DNA from: Escherichia phage DT571/2
Sequence record: NC_047749.1
Direction: 5' to 3' (one strand)
Length of the DNA stretch: 64,000 nucleotides
Position numbers and translations under genes: made by a program. This document shows, piece by piece, positions 3,421 to 12,401 of this stretch (position 1 is its first letter; every line of letters starts with the position of its first letter). A model generated the notes under the pieces. That model was given only the letters and a program-made list of their open reading frames with translations. It did no database searches and was not told the origin of the DNA.

Positions 3421-3837
3421 TTATTCACCTGCGGATTGTTTTACTTCATCTGCTACGCCTAGTAATTGCGCTACGGCGTCCAGCGTTTCTAATTTTGCGC
3501 TTTCCAGACTTGCCAGATCGTCGGCGTCTTTGATAATGCCGGAATCAATGGCATGTTTAGCAATAACGCGCACATAATGCGCCTTGCGGATTGAACTACC
3601 GCCGCCAACTTTGCGCGGTTTATCGCTTTTCTGATACGCTTTTGCGCTGGTCAATTTTGAGCGAACAGACACAGGGGAAGTAGCGCCCACTGTTTTGGCG
3701 ATCTCTTTCAGGCCGTCGCTGTTTGCGAACTCTAAACCGTTTTCATTGATTAATTGCTGATACATAGAAACGGCTTTTTGGGTATTTTCTTCATTCCATG
3801 CAAATTTTGCGGATTTTTCGGTTTTAACGTTAGTCAT
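3421..3837 (-). CDS. hypothetical pre-early protein
   Basis: 138-aa ORF, tightly packed in leftward operon. Confidence 0.55.
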   Translation of the reverse strand: MTNVKTEKSAKFAWNEENTQKAVSMYQQLINENGLEFANSDGLKEIAKTVGATSPVSVRSKLTSAKAYQKSDKPRKVGGGSSIRKAHYVRVIAKHAIDSGIIKDADDLASLESAKLETLDAVAQLLGVADEVKQSAGE

Positions 3838-4594: not shown

Positions 4595-5220
4595 ATCGTC
4601 GTCTCCTTATAAGGTTAATAAGTTTGCCGCCGATGGGCTTTAAAATGCACCTGATTTTTAAAGAGCGCGGCGGTAAACTTTCCGCCGTGTAGTTCGTCAT
4701 TGCCGCCCTACGAGATAAATAATAGGGAATACCCAAAAAAGGTGCAACCTTAATTTTGTAAAGAAATGTAAAGAAAGCAAATACCCGCACCGCGTCCGGC
4801 GATCGCCCAAGTTTAAAGGAAACAGGCGCGCGGATACCATAAAACCGAGCTGATTGGCAAGTAATTTTTTCATTTTTATTTGCCTTGCCCTACTTGACAA
4901 AACTTAAAAAGCTCGTGGTGACGATAAACGGGCTATCCCTTTATGATGGGATACCTGAAAAATTTACCGCGTTGTAGGACGTTTTAGGCCGCTTATCTTC
5001 GATTTAACAAATATTTAACAAAAGCAAAATTGAAAAATAGTTTGAGAAGGTATTGACTTTTTAAAATCAAGACTAAACGAGTTATTTTAAAAAATTAATT
5101 AATTGACTTTTATTTGTTGTTGTGTAGTAGAAAGATAGCAGACTAATAATTGCTAGAATGATAATCATGCTGGTGATTGTAACAGACTGAACTATTAGCA
5201 GACTACTGATCCCGGAAAAT

Positions 5221-5260
5221 CTCATTAGCCAACTAACTATCTCATTAGCCAACTAACTAT
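5221..5260. repeat. 20-bp direct repeat x2 (CTCATTAGCCAACTAACTAT)
   Basis: two identical adjacent copies. Confidence 0.9.
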
Positions 5261-5270
5261 TTCATAAGTT

Positions 5271-5450
5271 ATAATAACTATAAAAATAATCACCGTTAAA
5301 ATAATCACTATAAAAATAATCACCATTAAAATAATAACTATAGAAATAATCACCATTATAATAATCACCATTAAAATAATCACTATAAAAATAATCACCA
5401 TTAAAATAATCACTATAAAAATAATCACCATTATTATAATCACTATAAGA
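5271..5450. repeat. 15-bp tandem repeat, about 12 copies (ATAATCACYRTTAAA)
   Basis: read directly; the 68-aa ORF 5237..5443 is its translation artefact. Confidence 0.9.
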
Positions 5451-5486
5451 AACTATCGGCTTAAGTGAGAACCACTATCATTTAAG

Positions 5487-5568
5487 TTATCCACAACGTT
5501 ATCCACAGCACAAAATGATTTGACACGATAGGCGGCGATATAAAGATTTATCCACAGACTTATCCACA
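5487..5568. promoter_or_regulatory. DnaA-box cluster, 4 perfect TTATCCACA in direct orientation
   Basis: boxes at 5487, 5499, 5548, 5560; two imperfect boxes follow to about 5600. Confidence 0.7.
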
Positions 5569-5872
5569 GGTTATCCTACTGTATATTTATCCAGGGTAAA
5601 AAGATAGTGTTTACAACTGCAATCAATTTTGAGCGGCCTAAAACGCTTTCTAACGAGCTGATCGCTGTAGGGTAATATTAAAGTAAAGCCTTTACCCGTC
5701 GGCCTAGAGGCTTCGCCGTGTTTTGCTCTTTACTGCACCGCTGCGCGGTTAGCATAAAACTAGGTGTTAGGCAAGAAAAATAAAAAGTAAAGTAAACGTT
5801 GCCCCTAGAAAGAAAATAATTTTACCGGTAACATCGAAAGCGGGTAATAATTAACCTAATGTAAAGTTTTGT

Positions 5873-6991: not shown

Positions 6992-7209
6992 CGCGCCCGC
7001 GATGGTTAGCACACTAATGATTAGGGTGTTACGTGTCGCCTTGTGTGATCGTTAGCGGGCTAACTAATTTTCAAGCCTCCTCCAGATTTGCCCTTGTTTT
7101 AGTATCCCCATCAAAATAAAACGCGTTAGAAAGCGATTCAGGGCGTTTTAGGCCTATATTAGAATTATTCACTGCGTAGGAATACTGTATATTTATACAG
7201 TAGAATAAC

Positions 7210-7292
7210 CTGGGGATAAGTCGGTGGATAACGCTTCAAAATGGCTAGAATTTTGTCAAGGCAAATCGTGCTGTTGATAAGTCTGTGGATAA
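7210..7292. promoter_or_regulatory. DnaA-box cluster in opposite orientation to 5487..5568
   Basis: GTGGATAAC at 7224 and TGTGGATAA at 7284, plus imperfect TGGGGATAA at 7210. Confidence 0.6.
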
Positions 7293-7299
7293 CTTAAAT

Positions 7300-7590
7300 A
7301 ACAGTGTTTCTCACTTCCGTTTTTAAATGCGAATCATTATCATTTGCATTCCACTTCTTAAATGAGAATCATTTCACTTCTTGAATAGTTCTCATTCCCT
7401 TTCTTAAATGAGAATCATTTCACTTCTTGAATAGTTCTCATTTCACTTCTTGAATAGTTCTCATTCCACTTCTTAAATGAGAATCATTCCACTTCTTAAA
7501 TGAGAATCATTCCACCTCTTAAATGAGAATGATTATCATTCGCATTCCACTTCTTAAATGCGAATGATAATCATTCTCATTCGCATTCCG
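7300..7590. repeat. about 10 tandem copies of a 22-bp unit (CACTTCTTAAATGAGAATCATT / CACTTCTTGAATAGTTCTCATT) with flanking short inverted repeats
   Basis: read directly. Confidence 0.85.
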
Positions 7591-7617
7591 GCGAGCAGGG
7601 CAATTGCCCTGCGCTTA

Positions 7618-8350
7618 TGTGCAAATCCGACAATTGCTCCAAGGGTTACGCGAGGGCATGTATGTGCAAATCCGACCCATTTTTTGGTAGTGTGCAAATC
7701 CGACCCCAAAAATTTATAAATTCGTGAGAGTGACAAATCTGTCTCCCAAAAACTCCAGCAATCACGAACTGCGTTCGAATCCTGTGGGGTATGTGCAAAT
7801 CCGACACGGTTTTTCTAGGATTAAGATGTGCGAATCCGATGAAATTTTTGTGACTTCGATGAGAGGGTGTGTGATTGTATAGGTTTGAGGAGAAGATGAG
7901 AGAGCGAGAAAAATTTTGGGGCTAGAAGTGTATGGGCGCAGGATTGGTGCGGAGCACCTGATTTGCGGGGGTTTTGGGGGATAGTGGAGATAATTTGGGG
8001 AAATTTGAGATAGGTGCAGAAAAAGTAAAATTTTATTAGCTAAAGGGGGCAATATAGCTTGACAATTGAAAATTCTTGTGGCTCTAAAAACTCAGGCAAT
8101 CATGGGCCTTCGGCCCGAAATAATGCTGCTATTTTCAGGAGATTATATGTTCCTAAAAACTTAGGCGTTTGTGCAAATCCGACCATAAATTTCTAGAAAC
8201 ACAATGTGCAAATCCGACAGTAATTCCTGGAAATGTGTTTTCAAAAAATGTCTCCTAGAAATAACCGCCCTCCCTATAACCGCCCTCCCTATAACCGGCC
8301 TAGGTATGTAACGTTGGAGGGAAACTGCCCTAGAATATGTGCAAATCCGA
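7618..8350 (+). repeat. dispersed co-oriented 14-mer TGTGCAAATCCGAC, 8 copies
   Basis: copies at 7618, 7663, 7691, 7792, 7827 (variant), 8170, 8205, 8338; several preceded by CTAGAA. Confidence 0.85.
8261..8297. repeat. 15-bp tandem repeat x2.5 (ATAACCGCCCTCCCT)
   Basis: read directly. Confidence 0.85.
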
Positions 8351-8725
8351 TTAATATTTTTGTGTGATCCCTAGAATTTGTGCTTATCAATTTCCTAGAA
8401 ACTTAGGAGTCTGCTAGAAAGTGTTGAGCCATCCTAGCAGATGAGCGGCAACCGGTGTATCATCTTGAACACAGATATTGCCTTTAAATTTTTATCAGTT
8501 ATTTAAAAGTAAATAGTCCCCCATTTCATGTGAGATTCCTCGTGGGGCGCGTGAGTATTACGGAAGACTTAGTAATTAGATCTATACTCGTGCTGTCGCA
8601 ACGTATAGACGTAATACTAAGTGTAATAATCATCGCCCCTAGAGTTCAAAACAAGAGTTGTTTTTAATCTATGAGATTATTATAACATGTTTGGGTATGA
8701 GAATGCAAGAACTTTTTGTTAACGT

Positions 8726-9082
8726 TTATACTTCCTCCTCGAGATTGGTATTAGGATCGTAAATTTTCTTGGCTCCTGTATTTAATAGGAATCGCTCTGC
8801 AAGTAGTGGGTGAATATCAAAGAACTCTGTGCATCCTTCGAATCCCTTTAAATTACAGCGGTATTTCTTAAAGTAGATATGAGCAGCGGCTTCTAGATCT
8901 CTAGGATTATGGGTTTCATAAATCCCATACACGTATAAATCGTCAAAACCACGATAAACTATATTATCTAAGTTTAGTGTTTGAATCCTATTATGTGGAT
9001 TCACACTGATACCGATCTTTGTTCTTTTAGGGATCTTCGTCAGATCCCTATTTGCAAGAATATATGCTTTATATAGTGACAT
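8726..9082 (-). CDS. T5orf172 / GIY-YIG-like domain protein
   Basis: 118 aa; KIGIS.NPHNRI motif and C-terminal EFF resemble the T5orf172 domain. Confidence 0.6.
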   Translation of the reverse strand: MSLYKAYILANRDLTKIPKRTKIGISVNPHNRIQTLNLDNIVYRGFDDLYVYGIYETHNPRDLEAAAHIYFKKYRCNLKGFEGCTEFFDIHPLLAERFLLNTGAKKIYDPNTNLEEEV

Positions 9083-9809
9083 TCTTTCTAGCCTTTAGAT
9101 AGATTCCTTTAGATGCTAGATAGATATATGTAGCAAGGAATGAAGATGTAGATCCTGTTTCTTCAAGAGTAATAGATCCTTTTGCATAACGCTTAGTTCT
9201 AGGAGCCTGGTTAAGCACAAGTGCAGTGAGACTACCTAATCCTAGCGCATCCATTAAACGTTTGAAGGAGTCCTTTTCATCGTGGATAGCATATAGAATG
9301 TAATCTTCCGCTGTAGTTAGTTCTATATCGCGATGATGTGCCACTGCAATCCGTGCTACTACAGCTCCAATCGTTCTATAAATATCTTCAAACGTAATGC
9401 TAGTTTCAAAAGCTAATGCTGGAAGATGATCGAACTTACATTTCTTAGGCGGAATAAGAAGTTGTTCAGGATAAGCTTCTAGTGCCTGACGAACGTTTGC
9501 TTCTGGGTATGTTGGCAAAGGTTCATCTATAATAACATGTAAGAAATTAGCTCTGTGTCCTTTAGCAGTTGGATCTAAAGACTTCAATACTTTGTTCATA
9601 TCTACGTATGAATACGCTAGATCTGCTTGTGGGGCATTAATATCAAACTTAATCTTCTTACCCTCCCATTTAGCAGGGAACATCTCACAAACAAACATTA
9701 CTGCATGTTTAACCTCTGGCTCCAGCTCTGATAGACATTTGTGATCTGCTGTTACTGCTAGAGCGAGAATATTCTTAAATTTATTAGCTTCTTCAATCAT
9801 ATATCCCAT
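9069..9809 (-). CDS. hypothetical protein
   Basis: 246-aa ORF. Confidence 0.55.
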   Translation of the reverse strand: MGYMIEEANKFKNILALAVTADHKCLSELEPEVKHAVMFVCEMFPAKWEGKKIKFDINAPQADLAYSYVDMNKVLKSLDPTAKGHRANFLHVIIDEPLPTYPEANVRQALEAYPEQLLIPPKKCKFDHLPALAFETSITFEDIYRTIGAVVARIAVAHHRDIELTTAEDYILYAIHDEKDSFKRLMDALGLGSLTALVLNQAPRTKRYAKGSITLEETGSTSSFLATYIYLASKGIYLKARKNVTI

Positions 9810-10138
9810 GCCTGCTGACTATTATCACTAACTTGTGTCTTTTTCTCTCTTCGTGGTTTAAAAGTTCCTGTAGTATTACTTTTACTAGGTTCTAATTTAT
9901 ACCACAGCATTCCTAGCTGGTTAACCATATGAGCAACATTTCTAGGGGTCAATGGCGGTAGGGATTCACAGTTTGATATCTCCCTTAATATATTAAATAG
10001 TTCTGCCTCTTTAGCTTTATTGTTTACTACCACCACGTACTCTAATGTTTCTACCTCAGAATCCTCATCCTTATAGTAGAGGCTAAGAGTAATTAAATTC
10101 TCCCCAGCAGGGGCTATTTTTGTTTTACCAAATATCAT
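9797..10138 (-). CDS. hypothetical protein
   Basis: 113-aa ORF. Confidence 0.5.
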   Translation of the reverse strand: MIFGKTKIAPAGENLITLSLYYKDEDSEVETLEYVVVVNNKAKEAELFNILREISNCESLPPLTPRNVAHMVNQLGMLWYKLEPSKSNTTGTFKPRREKKTQVSDNSQQAWDI

Positions 10139-10734
10139 TAACTACCTCTCTTATCTTCGTTAAGAGCAGCTCCTAGTGCTTCCATAATTGCATCTTCTAT
10201 ACTTCCATGCTTACTAGGATTGCTTAAGTGAATAGTATATGAGTTCCTAGAAACTCCAGAGTCCACAGGTGCTGCGCTTTTCCTATCAGACTCAAAAGCT
10301 TCTTGGGTATGTTTCAACTGTACAGAAGGCCCATAGTCTTCCCCAACTCGATAGGACTGATTAGACGACAGCGTACCACCGCAGGGAACATTGTGCAAAT
10401 CCGATGGATTATTTAATAGTGCAATACCACCTCTTGGCCACGAGTCACTAACATGAGTACTAGGACGGTTAACCTCAGTCTTCACGAGTTTATAACCAGC
10501 ATCTATTAATGCATTAATAAGGTTATCAGCTGGAATGCGAGCCTTGCCAAAAATCTCACGAGCGTTGTTGAGCCTACCTTCAAAACCTTTACATGCTCTA
10601 ATATTAGTGTGTGCAAAGGTTAGCTTCATAGATTTGAATTGTACAGTAGCAGTTAAATCTTTAAAGCTATAATCCCACGTATTCAGTTCATGATCTGGTA
10701 CTACTTGAATAGATTGCTGTGCATATAAAGTCAT
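10138..10734 (-). CDS. hypothetical protein
   Basis: 198-aa ORF; contains one copy of the 14-mer at 10393. Confidence 0.55.
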   Translation of the reverse strand: MTLYAQQSIQVVPDHELNTWDYSFKDLTATVQFKSMKLTFAHTNIRACKGFEGRLNNAREIFGKARIPADNLINALIDAGYKLVKTEVNRPSTHVSDSWPRGGIALLNNPSDLHNVPCGGTLSSNQSYRVGEDYGPSVQLKHTQEAFESDRKSAAPVDSGVSRNSYTIHLSNPSKHGSIEDAIMEALGAALNEDKRGS

Positions 10735-10919
10735 TATTTATTCTCCAGTTTGTCTAACAGCTTATGAGCTGCTAGATTATATTGTTTAAGCTCACGGTTA
10801 AGGCTTTGGTTCTCACTATTTAATTCTAGATTCTCTTTATTAAGAAGATTGCAAATAAATAGAAGTGCTAGTATAACTAGCAGGGAACCTACAAGCATTA
10901 AAAGAAAAAGACTTTCCAT
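10734..10919 (-). CDS. small membrane protein
   Basis: 61 aa with N-terminal hydrophobic helix. Confidence 0.5.
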   Translation of the reverse strand: MESLFLLMLVGSLLVILALLFICNLLNKENLELNSENQSLNRELKQYNLAAHKLLDKLENK

Positions 10920-11461
10920 TATTTTATCTCCAGTCTTAGCTTTGAAAACTTATTATACCAAACTATATGATTATCGTCAATTACAAATTTATGATAACAT
11001 GCTGGTACGGTATAAGTTCCATAATCCGTGACACGCTGCACAACCTTGTGTGCACACAGTCGACATCCATGCCCTTCTAAATGAGATCTAGCAGTCTGCC
11101 AGTAATAGCCCTCGTGATCTGGGCAATAGATTTCGACTTGCTGTTGCATTGTCTTATAATTTACACGTTCATACCCGAAGAAAGCCCCGTGAGCTGCAAT
11201 GGCTTTCTTGATAAATATAAGGTTTAGCGCTTCTTGTTGAAAATCGGGATGTAGCTGCTTAATCTTAGTTCTATTAATAGATCCATCCGATTTGATGAAC
11301 CTATTTATTGGAAAGTTGTTAGCTTCCTCGATTAATAATCCATTTACTTTCTCTCTCATATTAGATACTCTCACAACTAAGATGGAAACATTCGTAAGCA
11401 TCCCCAGTAAACTCTTTATCTTGTAACAAACACTTAGCCTGGTCTTCTGGTACTCCAGCAT
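10919..11461 (-). CDS. Cys/His-rich protein, possible zinc-binding nuclease-like; true start probably internal Met near 11359
   Basis: CPDHEGYYWQTARSHLEGHGCRLCAH cluster; N-terminal 34 aa of ORF look non-coding. Confidence 0.5.
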   Translation of the reverse strand: MLEYQKTRLSVCYKIKSLLGMLTNVSILVVRVSNMREKVNGLLIEEANNFPINRFIKSDGSINRTKIKQLHPDFQQEALNLIFIKKAIAAHGAFFGYERVNYKTMQQQVEIYCPDHEGYYWQTARSHLEGHGCRLCAHKVVQRVTDYGTYTVPACYHKFVIDDNHIVWYNKFSKLRLEIK

Positions 11462-11564
11462 CTAATAATTGTTGTTTACTTGGCTTTTCAGCGAATACTT
11501 TTACAAAATACTCGCCATCCTGATTATACTCATTTATATCTCTAGTAAGGACATATACTTGCAT
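11361..11564 (-). CDS. hypothetical protein
   Basis: 67-aa ORF. Confidence 0.5.
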   Translation of the reverse strand: MQVYVLTRDINEYNQDGEYFVKVFAEKPSKQQLLDAGVPEDQAKCLLQDKEFTGDAYECFHLSCESI

Positions 11565-11620
11565 TTGAAGTTCCTTGAAAACATAAAAGGCCAGAACAAT
11601 TAAGTCCTGGCCTCCTAAAA

Positions 11621-12058
11621 TTAATGAAGTTGTTTACCACTTCTTAACATAGTGGCCGTTTCCATAAGACCTAGCGTAGTATCACGCTTACTGATCTGTT
11701 TACCAAGTTCATCAGTACGTTTACTGATGTAAGCATTAATAGCCATATTCATAGCGGTAGCGAGATCTTCTTTGGTTATCTCTTCATCGTCTAAAGCTAG
11801 TTTAGCTAAAGAATCAAATGTGCTAGAGAGTCCTATAAGGTCTGAGGTTTCTCCAGCCAAAATAGGATTAATATTATCTACTGTTACTTCTAGCATGGAG
11901 TTAACAATATCTTCACCGTCTATTAGACCAAATTCAATATTACTCTCCCACTCCTTCATCTGTTCCAGCAATGGATTTTTCTTTTCTGTCATGATAGAGG
12001 TTTCCTGTGTCAGTTGGTAAGAAGGATGATTGTGTCTTAGGAGGATGTTGTTTAGCAA
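11621..12058 (-). CDS. hypothetical acidic protein (start possibly 11982)
   Basis: 145-aa ORF overlapping upstream gene. Confidence 0.5.
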   Translation of the reverse strand: MLNNILLRHNHPSYQLTQETSIMTEKKNPLLEQMKEWESNIEFGLIDGEDIVNSMLEVTVDNINPILAGETSDLIGLSSTFDSLAKLALDDEEITKEDLATAMNMAINAYISKRTDELGKQISKRDTTLGLMETATMLRSGKQLH

Positions 12059-12401
12059 TCCAGTTAAGAATCAGCACGCGACTAGGAACAATATCGGTAT
12101 TATACCAAAAATCGTGAACCCATTGACGAGCATCTTCAAACTTACCAAATTTATACGCTTTCTTAAACAATTCAAATCCAAAACAATCTGGTGTAAAGTC
12201 TACTTCGCGATATTGAATTACTTTAGAACCAGTTAGGTCTTGGATCGCTGCATTAATTTCTGTATGTGAGAATTTTGTTTCATGAAACTTATTAAAGAAT
12301 CGGTAGTTGAAGCGTCCGTTCGTTTCGACAAATAACTGGATAAAGAGATCGTTAAATTGGTTATCAAACCAGTAATTCTGTAGTTGTTGTAGTGCTGTCA
12401 T
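11940..12401 (-). CDS. hypothetical protein
   Basis: 153-aa ORF. Confidence 0.5.
   Translation of the reverse strand: MTALQQLQNYWFDNQFNDLFIQLFVETNGRFNYRFFNKFHETKFSHTEINAAIQDLTGSKVIQYREVDFTPDCFGFELFKKAYKFGKFEDARQWVHDFWYNTDIVPSRVLILNWIAKQHPPKTQSSFLPTDTGNLYHDRKEKSIAGTDEGVGE

Follow-up and report, generated by a model that had tools for sequence, protein, structure and literature searches.

A sporadic T5orf172-family gene at the variable early-operon end of a DT57C-like phage and its relation to the conserved gene T5.023

Do the minus-strand genes beside the repeat region of a T5-like phage form a variable island, and is the T5orf172 gene at their end a homing endonuclease gene? The question is raised by positions 8726-11461 of a stretch of 64,000 nucleotides from Escherichia phage DT571/2 (NC_047749.1; the whole stretch is called the window here). 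An earlier note, made from the sequence alone, had described this interval as a variable island holding a T5orf172/GIY-YIG-like protein, three unknown proteins and a Cys/His-rich protein. The closest record to window positions 8000-12000 in a nucleotide search is Escherichia phage DT57C (98.8% identity), and nearly all of the 443 matching phage records are T5-like (Salmonella and Escherichia Demerecviridae); judged by these matches, the source phage is a DT57C-like Tequintavirus. Six back-to-back minus-strand open reading frames (ORFs) fill the interval, and the genes of the region (P1 to P7, Table 1) were named from the DT57C and T5 annotations together with the ORF list. We consider it probable that P1, the T5orf172 gene, is a homing-endonuclease-derived nuclease which is still under selection and moves horizontally in a slot at the operon end, where breakage and repair would yield the mosaic of P2 and P3.

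The family assignment of P1 was confirmed by profile searches. The protein encoded at 8726-9082 scored above the curated cut-offs of the Pfam families MUG113 (PF13455; 46.1 bits, gathering score 22.3) and T5orf172 (PF10544; 32.3 bits, gathering score 20) and matched phrog_18411, 'homing endonuclease', with an E-value of 4.5e-49. By these profiles, P1 is a member of the T5orf172/MUG113 family of the GIY-YIG superfamily. Its motif set comprises the first-strand Tyr, K-I-G, an Arg in helix 1, E-x3-H, and the catalytic Glu in T-E-F-F. The residues Y7, K22, G24, R32, E64, H68, E86, and F88 are invariant or nearly so over 16 aligned nuclease domains, invariant among the eight closest homologues, and no full-length copy lacks any of the motif residues. 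The best structural matches of P1 are to the structure-specific nuclease SLX1, and a GIY-YIG alpha/beta fold would be consistent with the data; a comparison of P1, P2, and P6 with solved structures by sequence gave no meaningful match. An exhaustive phmmer search of 1.84 billion representatives returned only 16 relatives of P1 at E <= 0.001. Two of them are short (122 and 129 amino acids, aa), and a third short one (135 aa) matches P1 residues 1-69 only and is a truncated copy, while most of the remaining relatives are longer (184-285 aa) and have T5orf172 as their C-terminal domain. Four relatives were scanned for further domains and contained one to three DUF4379/CapR-type zinc-finger modules each, which together with T5orf172 represent the described architecture of T5orf172 homing endonucleases (PMC10448857). 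The ratio of nonsynonymous to synonymous substitutions (dN/dS) was calculated for the 15 pairs formed by six orthologues of P1; it was 0.02-0.26 in 14 of them at dS values of up to 0.7, which indicates that the intact copies are under purifying selection.

The occurrence of the genes was determined by tblastn against 50,697 phage records (GenBank phage collection); a scan of IMG/VR for P1 loci had given four loci, three of which were known isolates, and the GenBank collection was used instead. P1 matched 181 records, comprising 47 close orthologues at >= 80% identity and otherwise paralogues or other alleles. For P2, 283 records were found (51 at >= 80% identity, the rest alleles at 30-50%), and for P3 95 (14 at >= 80% identity). 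P4 was detected in 438 records (432 full length) and P6 in 650 (523 full length). Close orthologues of P1 are therefore sporadic, with 47 records compared to 438 with the neighboring T5.019 homologue P4. The variable island proposed for the complete interval holds for 8689-10138 (P1 to P3), where the DNA around the T5orf172 gene is indeed mosaic and P2 and P3 vary; in T5 and Gostya9, the place of P1 to P3 is taken by an unrelated gene of 294 aa (T5.018). P4, P5, and P6, half of the proposed island, are conserved and collinear in essentially all relatives; this corresponds in part to what the earlier note had named as evidence against an island, namely conserved collinear orthologues with housekeeping roles. 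These three genes lie outside the mobile unit. The Cys/His protein P6 in particular, previously regarded as a variable accessory gene, is rather among the most conserved genes of the neighborhood (dN/dS 0.01-0.05 among tequintaviruses and 0.06-0.10 in other pairs; identity 95-99% in tequintaviruses, ~76% in epseptimaviruses, and ~61% in Klebsiella T5-like phages).

The assumption that the T5orf172 gene is mobile was supported by its distribution, by a gene-sized insertion or deletion (indel), by transfer between genera, and by decayed or displaced copies. As determined by blastn and junction alignments, the 392 bp at window 8689-9080 correspond to 42 bp in phage MM-1, and homology to MM-1 covers both flanks (window 7000-8688 and 9081-10932). 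As is typical of homing genes, P1 is thus a discrete gene-sized insertion between conserved flanks which occurs sporadically among close relatives; it is carried by the window, DT57C, VAH1, FFH_1, OSYSP, N5, and S124. Phylogenetic incongruence with the surrounding genes, a further hallmark of such genes, was found in a sample of about 20 genomes. The epseptimavirus S124 shares 89% identity with the window in P1, 76.5% in P2, 54% in P4, and 39% in the T5.025 homologue, and in N5 and VAH1 identity is 97% for P1 but only 50% for the adjoining P2 allele. The decay expected in the life cycle of a homing gene is represented by two phages. P1 of JLBYU40 is annotated as two ORFs, indicating a frameshift or possibly a sequencing error, and P1 of Kenya-K36 ends at residue 66, where it is cut by an incoming segment. 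The crossover in Kenya-K36 (positions 3674-3698 of the retrieved locus, L013) leads from an N5/VAH1-like backbone into SP3/BB1-like sequence, and the incoming segment consists of the 34 codons at the 3' end of another P2 allele and an intact 242-aa gene encoding DUF723 and T5orf172 domains. Kenya-K36 is a clear natural case of one selfish nuclease gene overwriting another in a single slot. The overwritten locus covers L013 3501-4629, and the annotated terminal repeat begins only 9 bp past the fused gene.

T5-like phages are rich in T5orf172 homing endonucleases, which are located at boundaries of genetic exchange (PMC10448857), and the differences among T5-like genomes have been attributed chiefly to homing endonucleases (PMC10644984). 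The operon end corresponding to 8689-10138 is probably a slot for selfish T5orf172-family homing endonuclease genes in T5-like phages, occupied here by P1, which would be a derivative reduced to the GIY-YIG-type catalytic domain. During mixed infection, P1 or its two-domain relatives would break co-infecting genomes lacking the nuclease, possibly near the junction of the P2 3' end with the non-coding region, and recombinational repair would copy the nuclease gene together with the adjacent P2/P3 alleles, giving rise to the mosaic island. P1 most likely marks a recombination boundary. The cutting of DNA by P1, the location of the cut, and the finding of a target by a protein with no DNA-binding domain are inferred and not observed.

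Several points weigh against this reading. Its main weakness is the absence of a DNA-binding domain: the nuclease domain fills the 118 aa of P1, no further Pfam or PHROG domain was found, and P1 consequently lacks the target-recognition domain of its own that would be expected of a homing endonuclease. Since the T5orf172 homing endonucleases surveyed so far almost always have zinc-finger DNA-binding domains (PMC10448857), site-specific homing by P1 alone is doubtful. A cleavage site, a target duplication, or a co-conversion gradient was not demonstrated for P1, and the purifying selection fits a domesticated function equally well as an active selfish gene. Short T5orf172 genes are furthermore found at the same position in three genera with 37-54% identity and could equally represent an old, vertically inherited gene that was lost repeatedly. 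We therefore describe P1 as a derivative of a free-standing homing endonuclease gene which behaves like one and shares its genomic features, though not its architecture, rather than as a proven gene of this kind.

The lack of a binding domain also bears on the question of whether P1 is a leftover catalytic domain which has no function and is heading for deletion. The two-domain organization of most non-short relatives and the existence of decayed copies would fit such an inert remnant. Nevertheless, we regard this as very unlikely, because dN/dS is about 0.1 over dS values of up to 0.7, the motif residues are intact in all full-length copies, and the same short architecture has been kept in the three genera mentioned above. 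The selection acting on P1 could instead reflect domestication. P1 would then be an early host-takeover or competition factor, for example for cutting host, satellite, or competitor DNA or for processing branched DNA, that is kept by selection and moved only passively by recombination. Besides purifying selection, the structural similarity to SLX1 points in this direction, as does the location in an early operon of small host-takeover-type genes with a T5.026 homologue nearby (PMC7472727). Domesticated or weaponized T5orf172 proteins are known in CapR and Odn (PMC10448857). On the other hand, P1 is dispensable, as it is absent from ~90% of the relatives including T5, and it was frameshifted or overwritten in some lineages. 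Domestication thus appears somewhat unlikely, and the horizontally moving, homing-endonuclease-derived nuclease is retained as the preferred explanation.

The gene that displaced P1 in Kenya-K36 belongs to a second type of nuclease, represented by EscoHU1_016 (242 aa, DUF723 and T5orf172), which occupies the same slot as P1 and overlaps the stop codon of its own P2 allele. Carriers in the sample were EscoHU1, SP3, BB1, vB_SenS_S124, TrudiRoth, and Kenya-K36. Residues 4-106 of EscoHU1_016 align to P6 residues 1-103 with 64% identity (E 4e-47), and residues 131-242 align to P1 with 37% identity (E 2e-22); a database copy of the fused protein (P0044) has precomputed PF05265 (DUF723) and PF10544 (T5orf172) assignments. 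Because EscoHU1_016 fuses a P6-like to a P1-like domain, the window holds the two modules of a typical T5orf172 homing endonuclease in two genes, separated by about 1.8 kb. Between epseptimaviruses and tequintaviruses, identity amounts to 94-96% for the fused gene and 80-93% for its P2 allele, compared to only 57-63% for the next gene (T5.019 homologue); read from these identities, the fused gene was again transferred between genera, and its flank was co-converted. P6 of tequintaviruses and P6 of epseptimaviruses are both 63-66% identical to the binding domain of the fused protein, and this equal distance suggests that the split or fusion is old.

P6 is the homologue of T5.023, an early gene that is strongly constrained and nearly universal in Demerecviridae. 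Its zinc-finger signature, C79-x2-H82-x16-C99-x2-C102, was read from the sequence and lies in a module of ~60 aa; in two-domain T5orf172 proteins, the counterpart of this module in the alignment is the second of their zinc modules. Residues 46-106 match the endonuclease family phrog_681 and the HNH family phrog_559. No match of P6 to PF05265, PF21817, or PF14311 was obtained by hmmscan even at E-values of up to 10, yet PF05265 is precomputed for 12 of 12 database homologues. The P6-like module also occurs fused to a homing-endonuclease catalytic domain in the six 242-aa proteins. By these alignments, P6 is a conserved stand-alone copy of the zinc-finger module (DUF723/CapR-like) that the rival element carries in fused form. 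Since P6 is present and strongly conserved in T5, MM-1, and Gostya9, which are devoid of P1, it probably has a role independent of P1. No functional study of T5.018, T5.019, T5.022, or T5.023 was found in a literature search, in which T5.026 alone turned out to have been studied.

The fusion raises the possibility of a split two-component nuclease, with P1 providing catalysis and P6 (T5.023) DNA targeting in trans. EscoHU1_016 can be read as a 'Rosetta stone' for such a pair, given that it joins the two domains in the same slot, and the phrog_681 profile likewise sets a P6-like module (370-432) directly before a P1-like module (442-541). P1 and P6 are the sole T5orf172 and P6-like genes in the 64-kb window, and wherever the slot was occupied by a short T5orf172 gene (eight genomes of the sample), a separate P6 was present as well. 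Furthermore, three of the six genomes with the fused gene (EscoHU1, SP3, and BB1) have no separate P6, compared to none of the 13 other genomes, an association that is suggestive (Fisher p ~0.02, for a small sample of genomes that are not phylogenetically independent). The split nuclease is nonetheless unlikely, as P6 is conserved in the P1-less phages, the nuclease halves share only 37% identity, and the equidistance of the fused binding domain places the event far back. As to the deletions themselves, T5.022 and T5.024 are missing along with T5.023 in EscoHU1 (L005), SP3 (L015), and BB1 (L016), EscoHU1 also lacks T5.021, and at least two different end-points can be distinguished.

A more far-reaching version of this idea would be that T5.023 is the DNA-targeting half of a split homing or competition nuclease and that the nuclease-only P1 is a mobile catalytic module borrowing it, which we consider decidedly unlikely. 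Alternatively, in a mirror image, T5.023 could mask the sites attacked by the rival fused DUF723-T5orf172 nuclease. If true, a core phage regulator and a selfish nuclease would share one DNA-recognition module; to our knowledge, such a two-component architecture has not been described for GIY-YIG-type homing endonucleases. The binding sites of T5.023 might be a conserved 14-mer array beside the slot. This 14-mer, TGTGCAAATCCGAY, occurs in eight copies at 7618-8351 and in one further copy at 10392-10405, with none expected from shuffled sequences. The array was kept in every T5-like locus fetched, including that of a Klebsiella phage, and the array and T5.023 (or the fused protein) were found together in every T5-like genome examined, for which reason their co-occurrence has no discriminating power. 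The isolated copy, noticed before as lying inside a coding sequence, is located in the 198-aa P4 gene. Its position is kept in 15 of 16 T5.019 homologues (exact in seven, with one TTG-to-ATG mismatch in eight), and it encodes part of the conserved protein motif SD(L/M)HNVPCGG in one of the best-conserved parts of P4, although other stretches of P4 are equally conserved; the conservation of the copy may thus reflect the protein sequence as well as a function at the DNA level. The similarity of T5.023 to a homing-endonuclease binding module offers a lead to its function (putative DNA binding, possibly at the repeats of the injection-stop region) and to how a nuclease with no binding domain could be targeted.

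The location of the genes in the early region adjoining the first-step-transfer DNA, and the fast evolution of P2 and P3, as often seen for counter-defense genes, could also be taken to indicate an anti-restriction or anti-defense island. The six proteins, however, showed no similarity to known anti-defense or defense proteins apart from a weak domain-level match of P1 to the candidate system PDC-S57 in PADLOC; Pfam and NCBIfam gave nothing to support the anti-restriction link suggested before, and fold searches with P2 remained empty (mediocre model, no informative structural neighbor). An anti-defense role of the island is therefore extremely improbable. The P2 family (phrog_8993) is restricted to Demerecviridae, its alleles are 30-100% identical, and each of them is linked to the type of the downstream nuclease gene. 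A relationship of P2 to T5.018, which is found at the same position, was considered and rejected (hhalign probability 1.4%, no homology detected). P3, P4, and P5 belong to no family beyond PHROGs of no assigned function in Pfam, PHROG, PADLOC, and NCBIfam scans.

The coordinates of the genes and other features are compiled in Table 1. As a by-product, the gene map was corrected, by shortening the Cys/His ORF and by telling variable from conserved parts. The T5orf172 and Cys/His genes are separated by four ORFs of unknown function (246, 113, 198, and 61 aa) instead of three. The Cys/His gene exists as predicted, but its extension to 11461 was an artifact of the mechanically chosen longest ORF (180 aa). 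The start is at 11359, one base past the stop codon of the T5.024 homologue, an arrangement that is identical in T5 and DT57C; 11361-11461 is part of the T5.024 homologue and was overlapped by the over-extended ORF.

Table 1. Genes and other features in and around the T5orf172 slot of the window.
Feature	Position	Strand	Description
P1	8726-9082	-	118 aa; identical to DT57C_000012, annotated 'putative homing endonuclease P-TflXVII'
P2	9069-9809	-	246 aa; no T5 counterpart; phrog_8993
P3	9797-10138	-	113 aa; no T5 counterpart; phrog_13456
P4	10138-10734	-	198 aa; T5.019 homologue (DT57C annotation)
P5	10734-10919	-	61 aa; single-pass membrane protein; T5.020 homologue
P6	10919-11359	-	146 aa; Cys/His protein; T5.023 homologue; phrog_4605
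P7	11361-11564	-	67 aa; T5.024 homologue
Gene-sized indel with P1	8689-9080		alignment of window and MM-1
Junction lacking T5.021 and T5.022 homologues	10923-10927		comparison with DT57C
Predicted sigma-70-like promoter	10952-10980	-	TTGACG-17-TATAAT with upstream TG; best match of the region; in P6 3' end
Terminator-like hairpin	11584-11617	-	upstream of T5.024 homologue; T5 terminator annotated at equivalent place
14-mer array	7618-8351	+	8 copies; non-coding injection-stop/terminal-repeat-end region
Isolated 14-mer copy	10392-10405	+	antisense within P4; coding strand reads S-D-L-H-(N)

A promoter is annotated in T5 within T5.023 at a place equivalent to the one predicted in the P6 3' end. 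From this prediction, P5 to P1 probably form one early transcription unit with P1 as its last gene, coupled to the translation of P2 by an overlap of 14 nt between the P1 start and the P2 stop. The genes had been called the first of the leftward early genes; they are the promoter-distal, that is, the last genes of the leftward early transcription unit. A homologue of T5.026, the product of which binds E. coli RNA polymerase (PMC7472727), is located at window 11940-12401, so that the leftward early block includes host-takeover genes. HNH-type homing endonuclease genes (F-TflVIII-like and P-TflX-like) were observed a few kb deeper in the early block of Gostya9 (L020, 6295-6831) and BB1 (L016, 353-760); the window has no HNH insertion at the corresponding place and is collinear with DT57C there.

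A second polymorphism was found at the P5/P6 border. The window lacks the homologues of T5.021 and T5.022 there, which occupy 518 bp in DT57C, and the P6 reading frame terminates on the last two codons and the stop codon of the lost T5.021 homologue. The same junction is present in Gostya9 (98.1%), fp01, SCF, and HASG4. Compared to DT57C, the window has no mismatch over 10000-10799 and 43 mismatches in the 128 nt of 10800-10927, where it is Gostya9-like, including the 5' half of P5. The crossover near 10800 is a sharp recombination breakpoint, and the turn to Gostya9-like sequence from there suggests that the source phage is a mosaic of DT57C and Gostya9 types. A de novo deletion from DT57C was rejected, as the Gostya9-like allele past ~10800 already has the junction.

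Judged by homology to MM-1 and T5, the 14-mer array contains the end of the left terminal repeat (near window 8050-8090), which places P1 to P7 in the second-step-transfer DNA, ~650 bp past the repeat. The 'major DNA single-chain interruption' annotated in T5 (9748/9749; L004 2249-2253) is found 3 nt before the first 14-mer copy. Between two of the copies in the window, an exact 15-bp tandem duplication of ATAACCGCCCTCCCT is present (8261-8290). Just left of the array, within 7347-7581, six 23-bp tandem units (CATTYCACTTCTTRAATRRKWMT-like) are followed by a perfect 25-nt inverted repeat (7522-7546/7557-7581); the repeats at 7347-7581 presumably belong to the injection-stop region. Farther left, at 5241-5495, at least 12 tandem AT-rich 15-bp units (ATAATCACCATTAAA) abut paired DnaA-box-like TTATCCACA motifs (5487-5569), a pair that recurs in inverted orientation at 7271-7292. 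The arms 5463-5594 and 7185-7316 form an inverted repeat of 132 nt (77%) around three small plus-strand ORFs in the terminal repeat, and the GC content drops to 0.25 at 5001-5500.

P1 has already been deposited and annotated as a putative homing endonuclease, and as a case of ordinary phage mosaicism it adds little. It has likewise been published (PMC10448857) that T5-like phages contain T5orf172 endonucleases, that these are modular and have zinc-finger modules, and that they are positioned at boundaries of exchange. What is new is only the link, drawn here from sequence similarity, between the core gene T5.023 and the binding domain of a mobile nuclease that occupies the same slot. With the T5orf172 homing endonucleases of ICP1 and T5-like phages (Barth et al. 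2023, PMC10448857), P1 shares the catalytic domain, the variable presence, the frameshifted copies, and the position at an exchange boundary, and CapR/DUF723/DUF4397-type zinc-finger modules are found in the same genomes. These systems have terminase, ribonucleotide reductase, or capsid genes as neighbors, whereas P1 is the last gene of an early operon and adjoins non-coding repeats; P1 also differs in lacking any DNA-binding module. The EscoHU1_016/vB_SenS_S124 'endonuclease' type resembles P1 in its slot, downstream of and overlapping a P2-family gene, and in its nuclease domain, which belongs to the same subgroup with the shared insertions NRDxxKIPxR and LDKIxxxGF. It differs in being two-domain, with N-terminal 103 residues at 64% identity to T5.023 and a nuclease domain of only 37% identity to P1.

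The name given to P1 in the DT57C annotation stems from T5.154 ('P-TflXVII', 277 aa, in the portal-terminase interval of T5), which has a T5orf172 domain with 33% identity to P1 over 75 residues. T5.154 is more than twice as long as P1, which matches only its C-terminal part (residues 190-260), and no similarity of P6 to T5.154 was detected. With this identity, two domains, and another locus, T5.154 is a paralogue, and orthology with P1 was rejected. The catalytic domains of SLX1, UvrC-N, and I-TevI (GIY-YIG superfamily) are 14-16% identical to P1. SLX1 works with its partner SLX4 and I-TevI with its own DNA-binding domain, whereas P1 has neither in view. Two further related proteins (PMC10448857) are CapR of the Vibrio cholerae satellite PLE, a T5orf172 endonuclease that was domesticated and acts as a repressor, and Odn of ICP1, a chimeric T5orf172 nuclease with a borrowed RepA_N DNA-binding domain. 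Both illustrate the modularity of T5orf172 proteins, the exchange of their binding domains with non-nuclease proteins, and the possible domestication of their modules. T5.023 resembles a binding module living alone, whereas CapR and Odn keep both domains in one chain.

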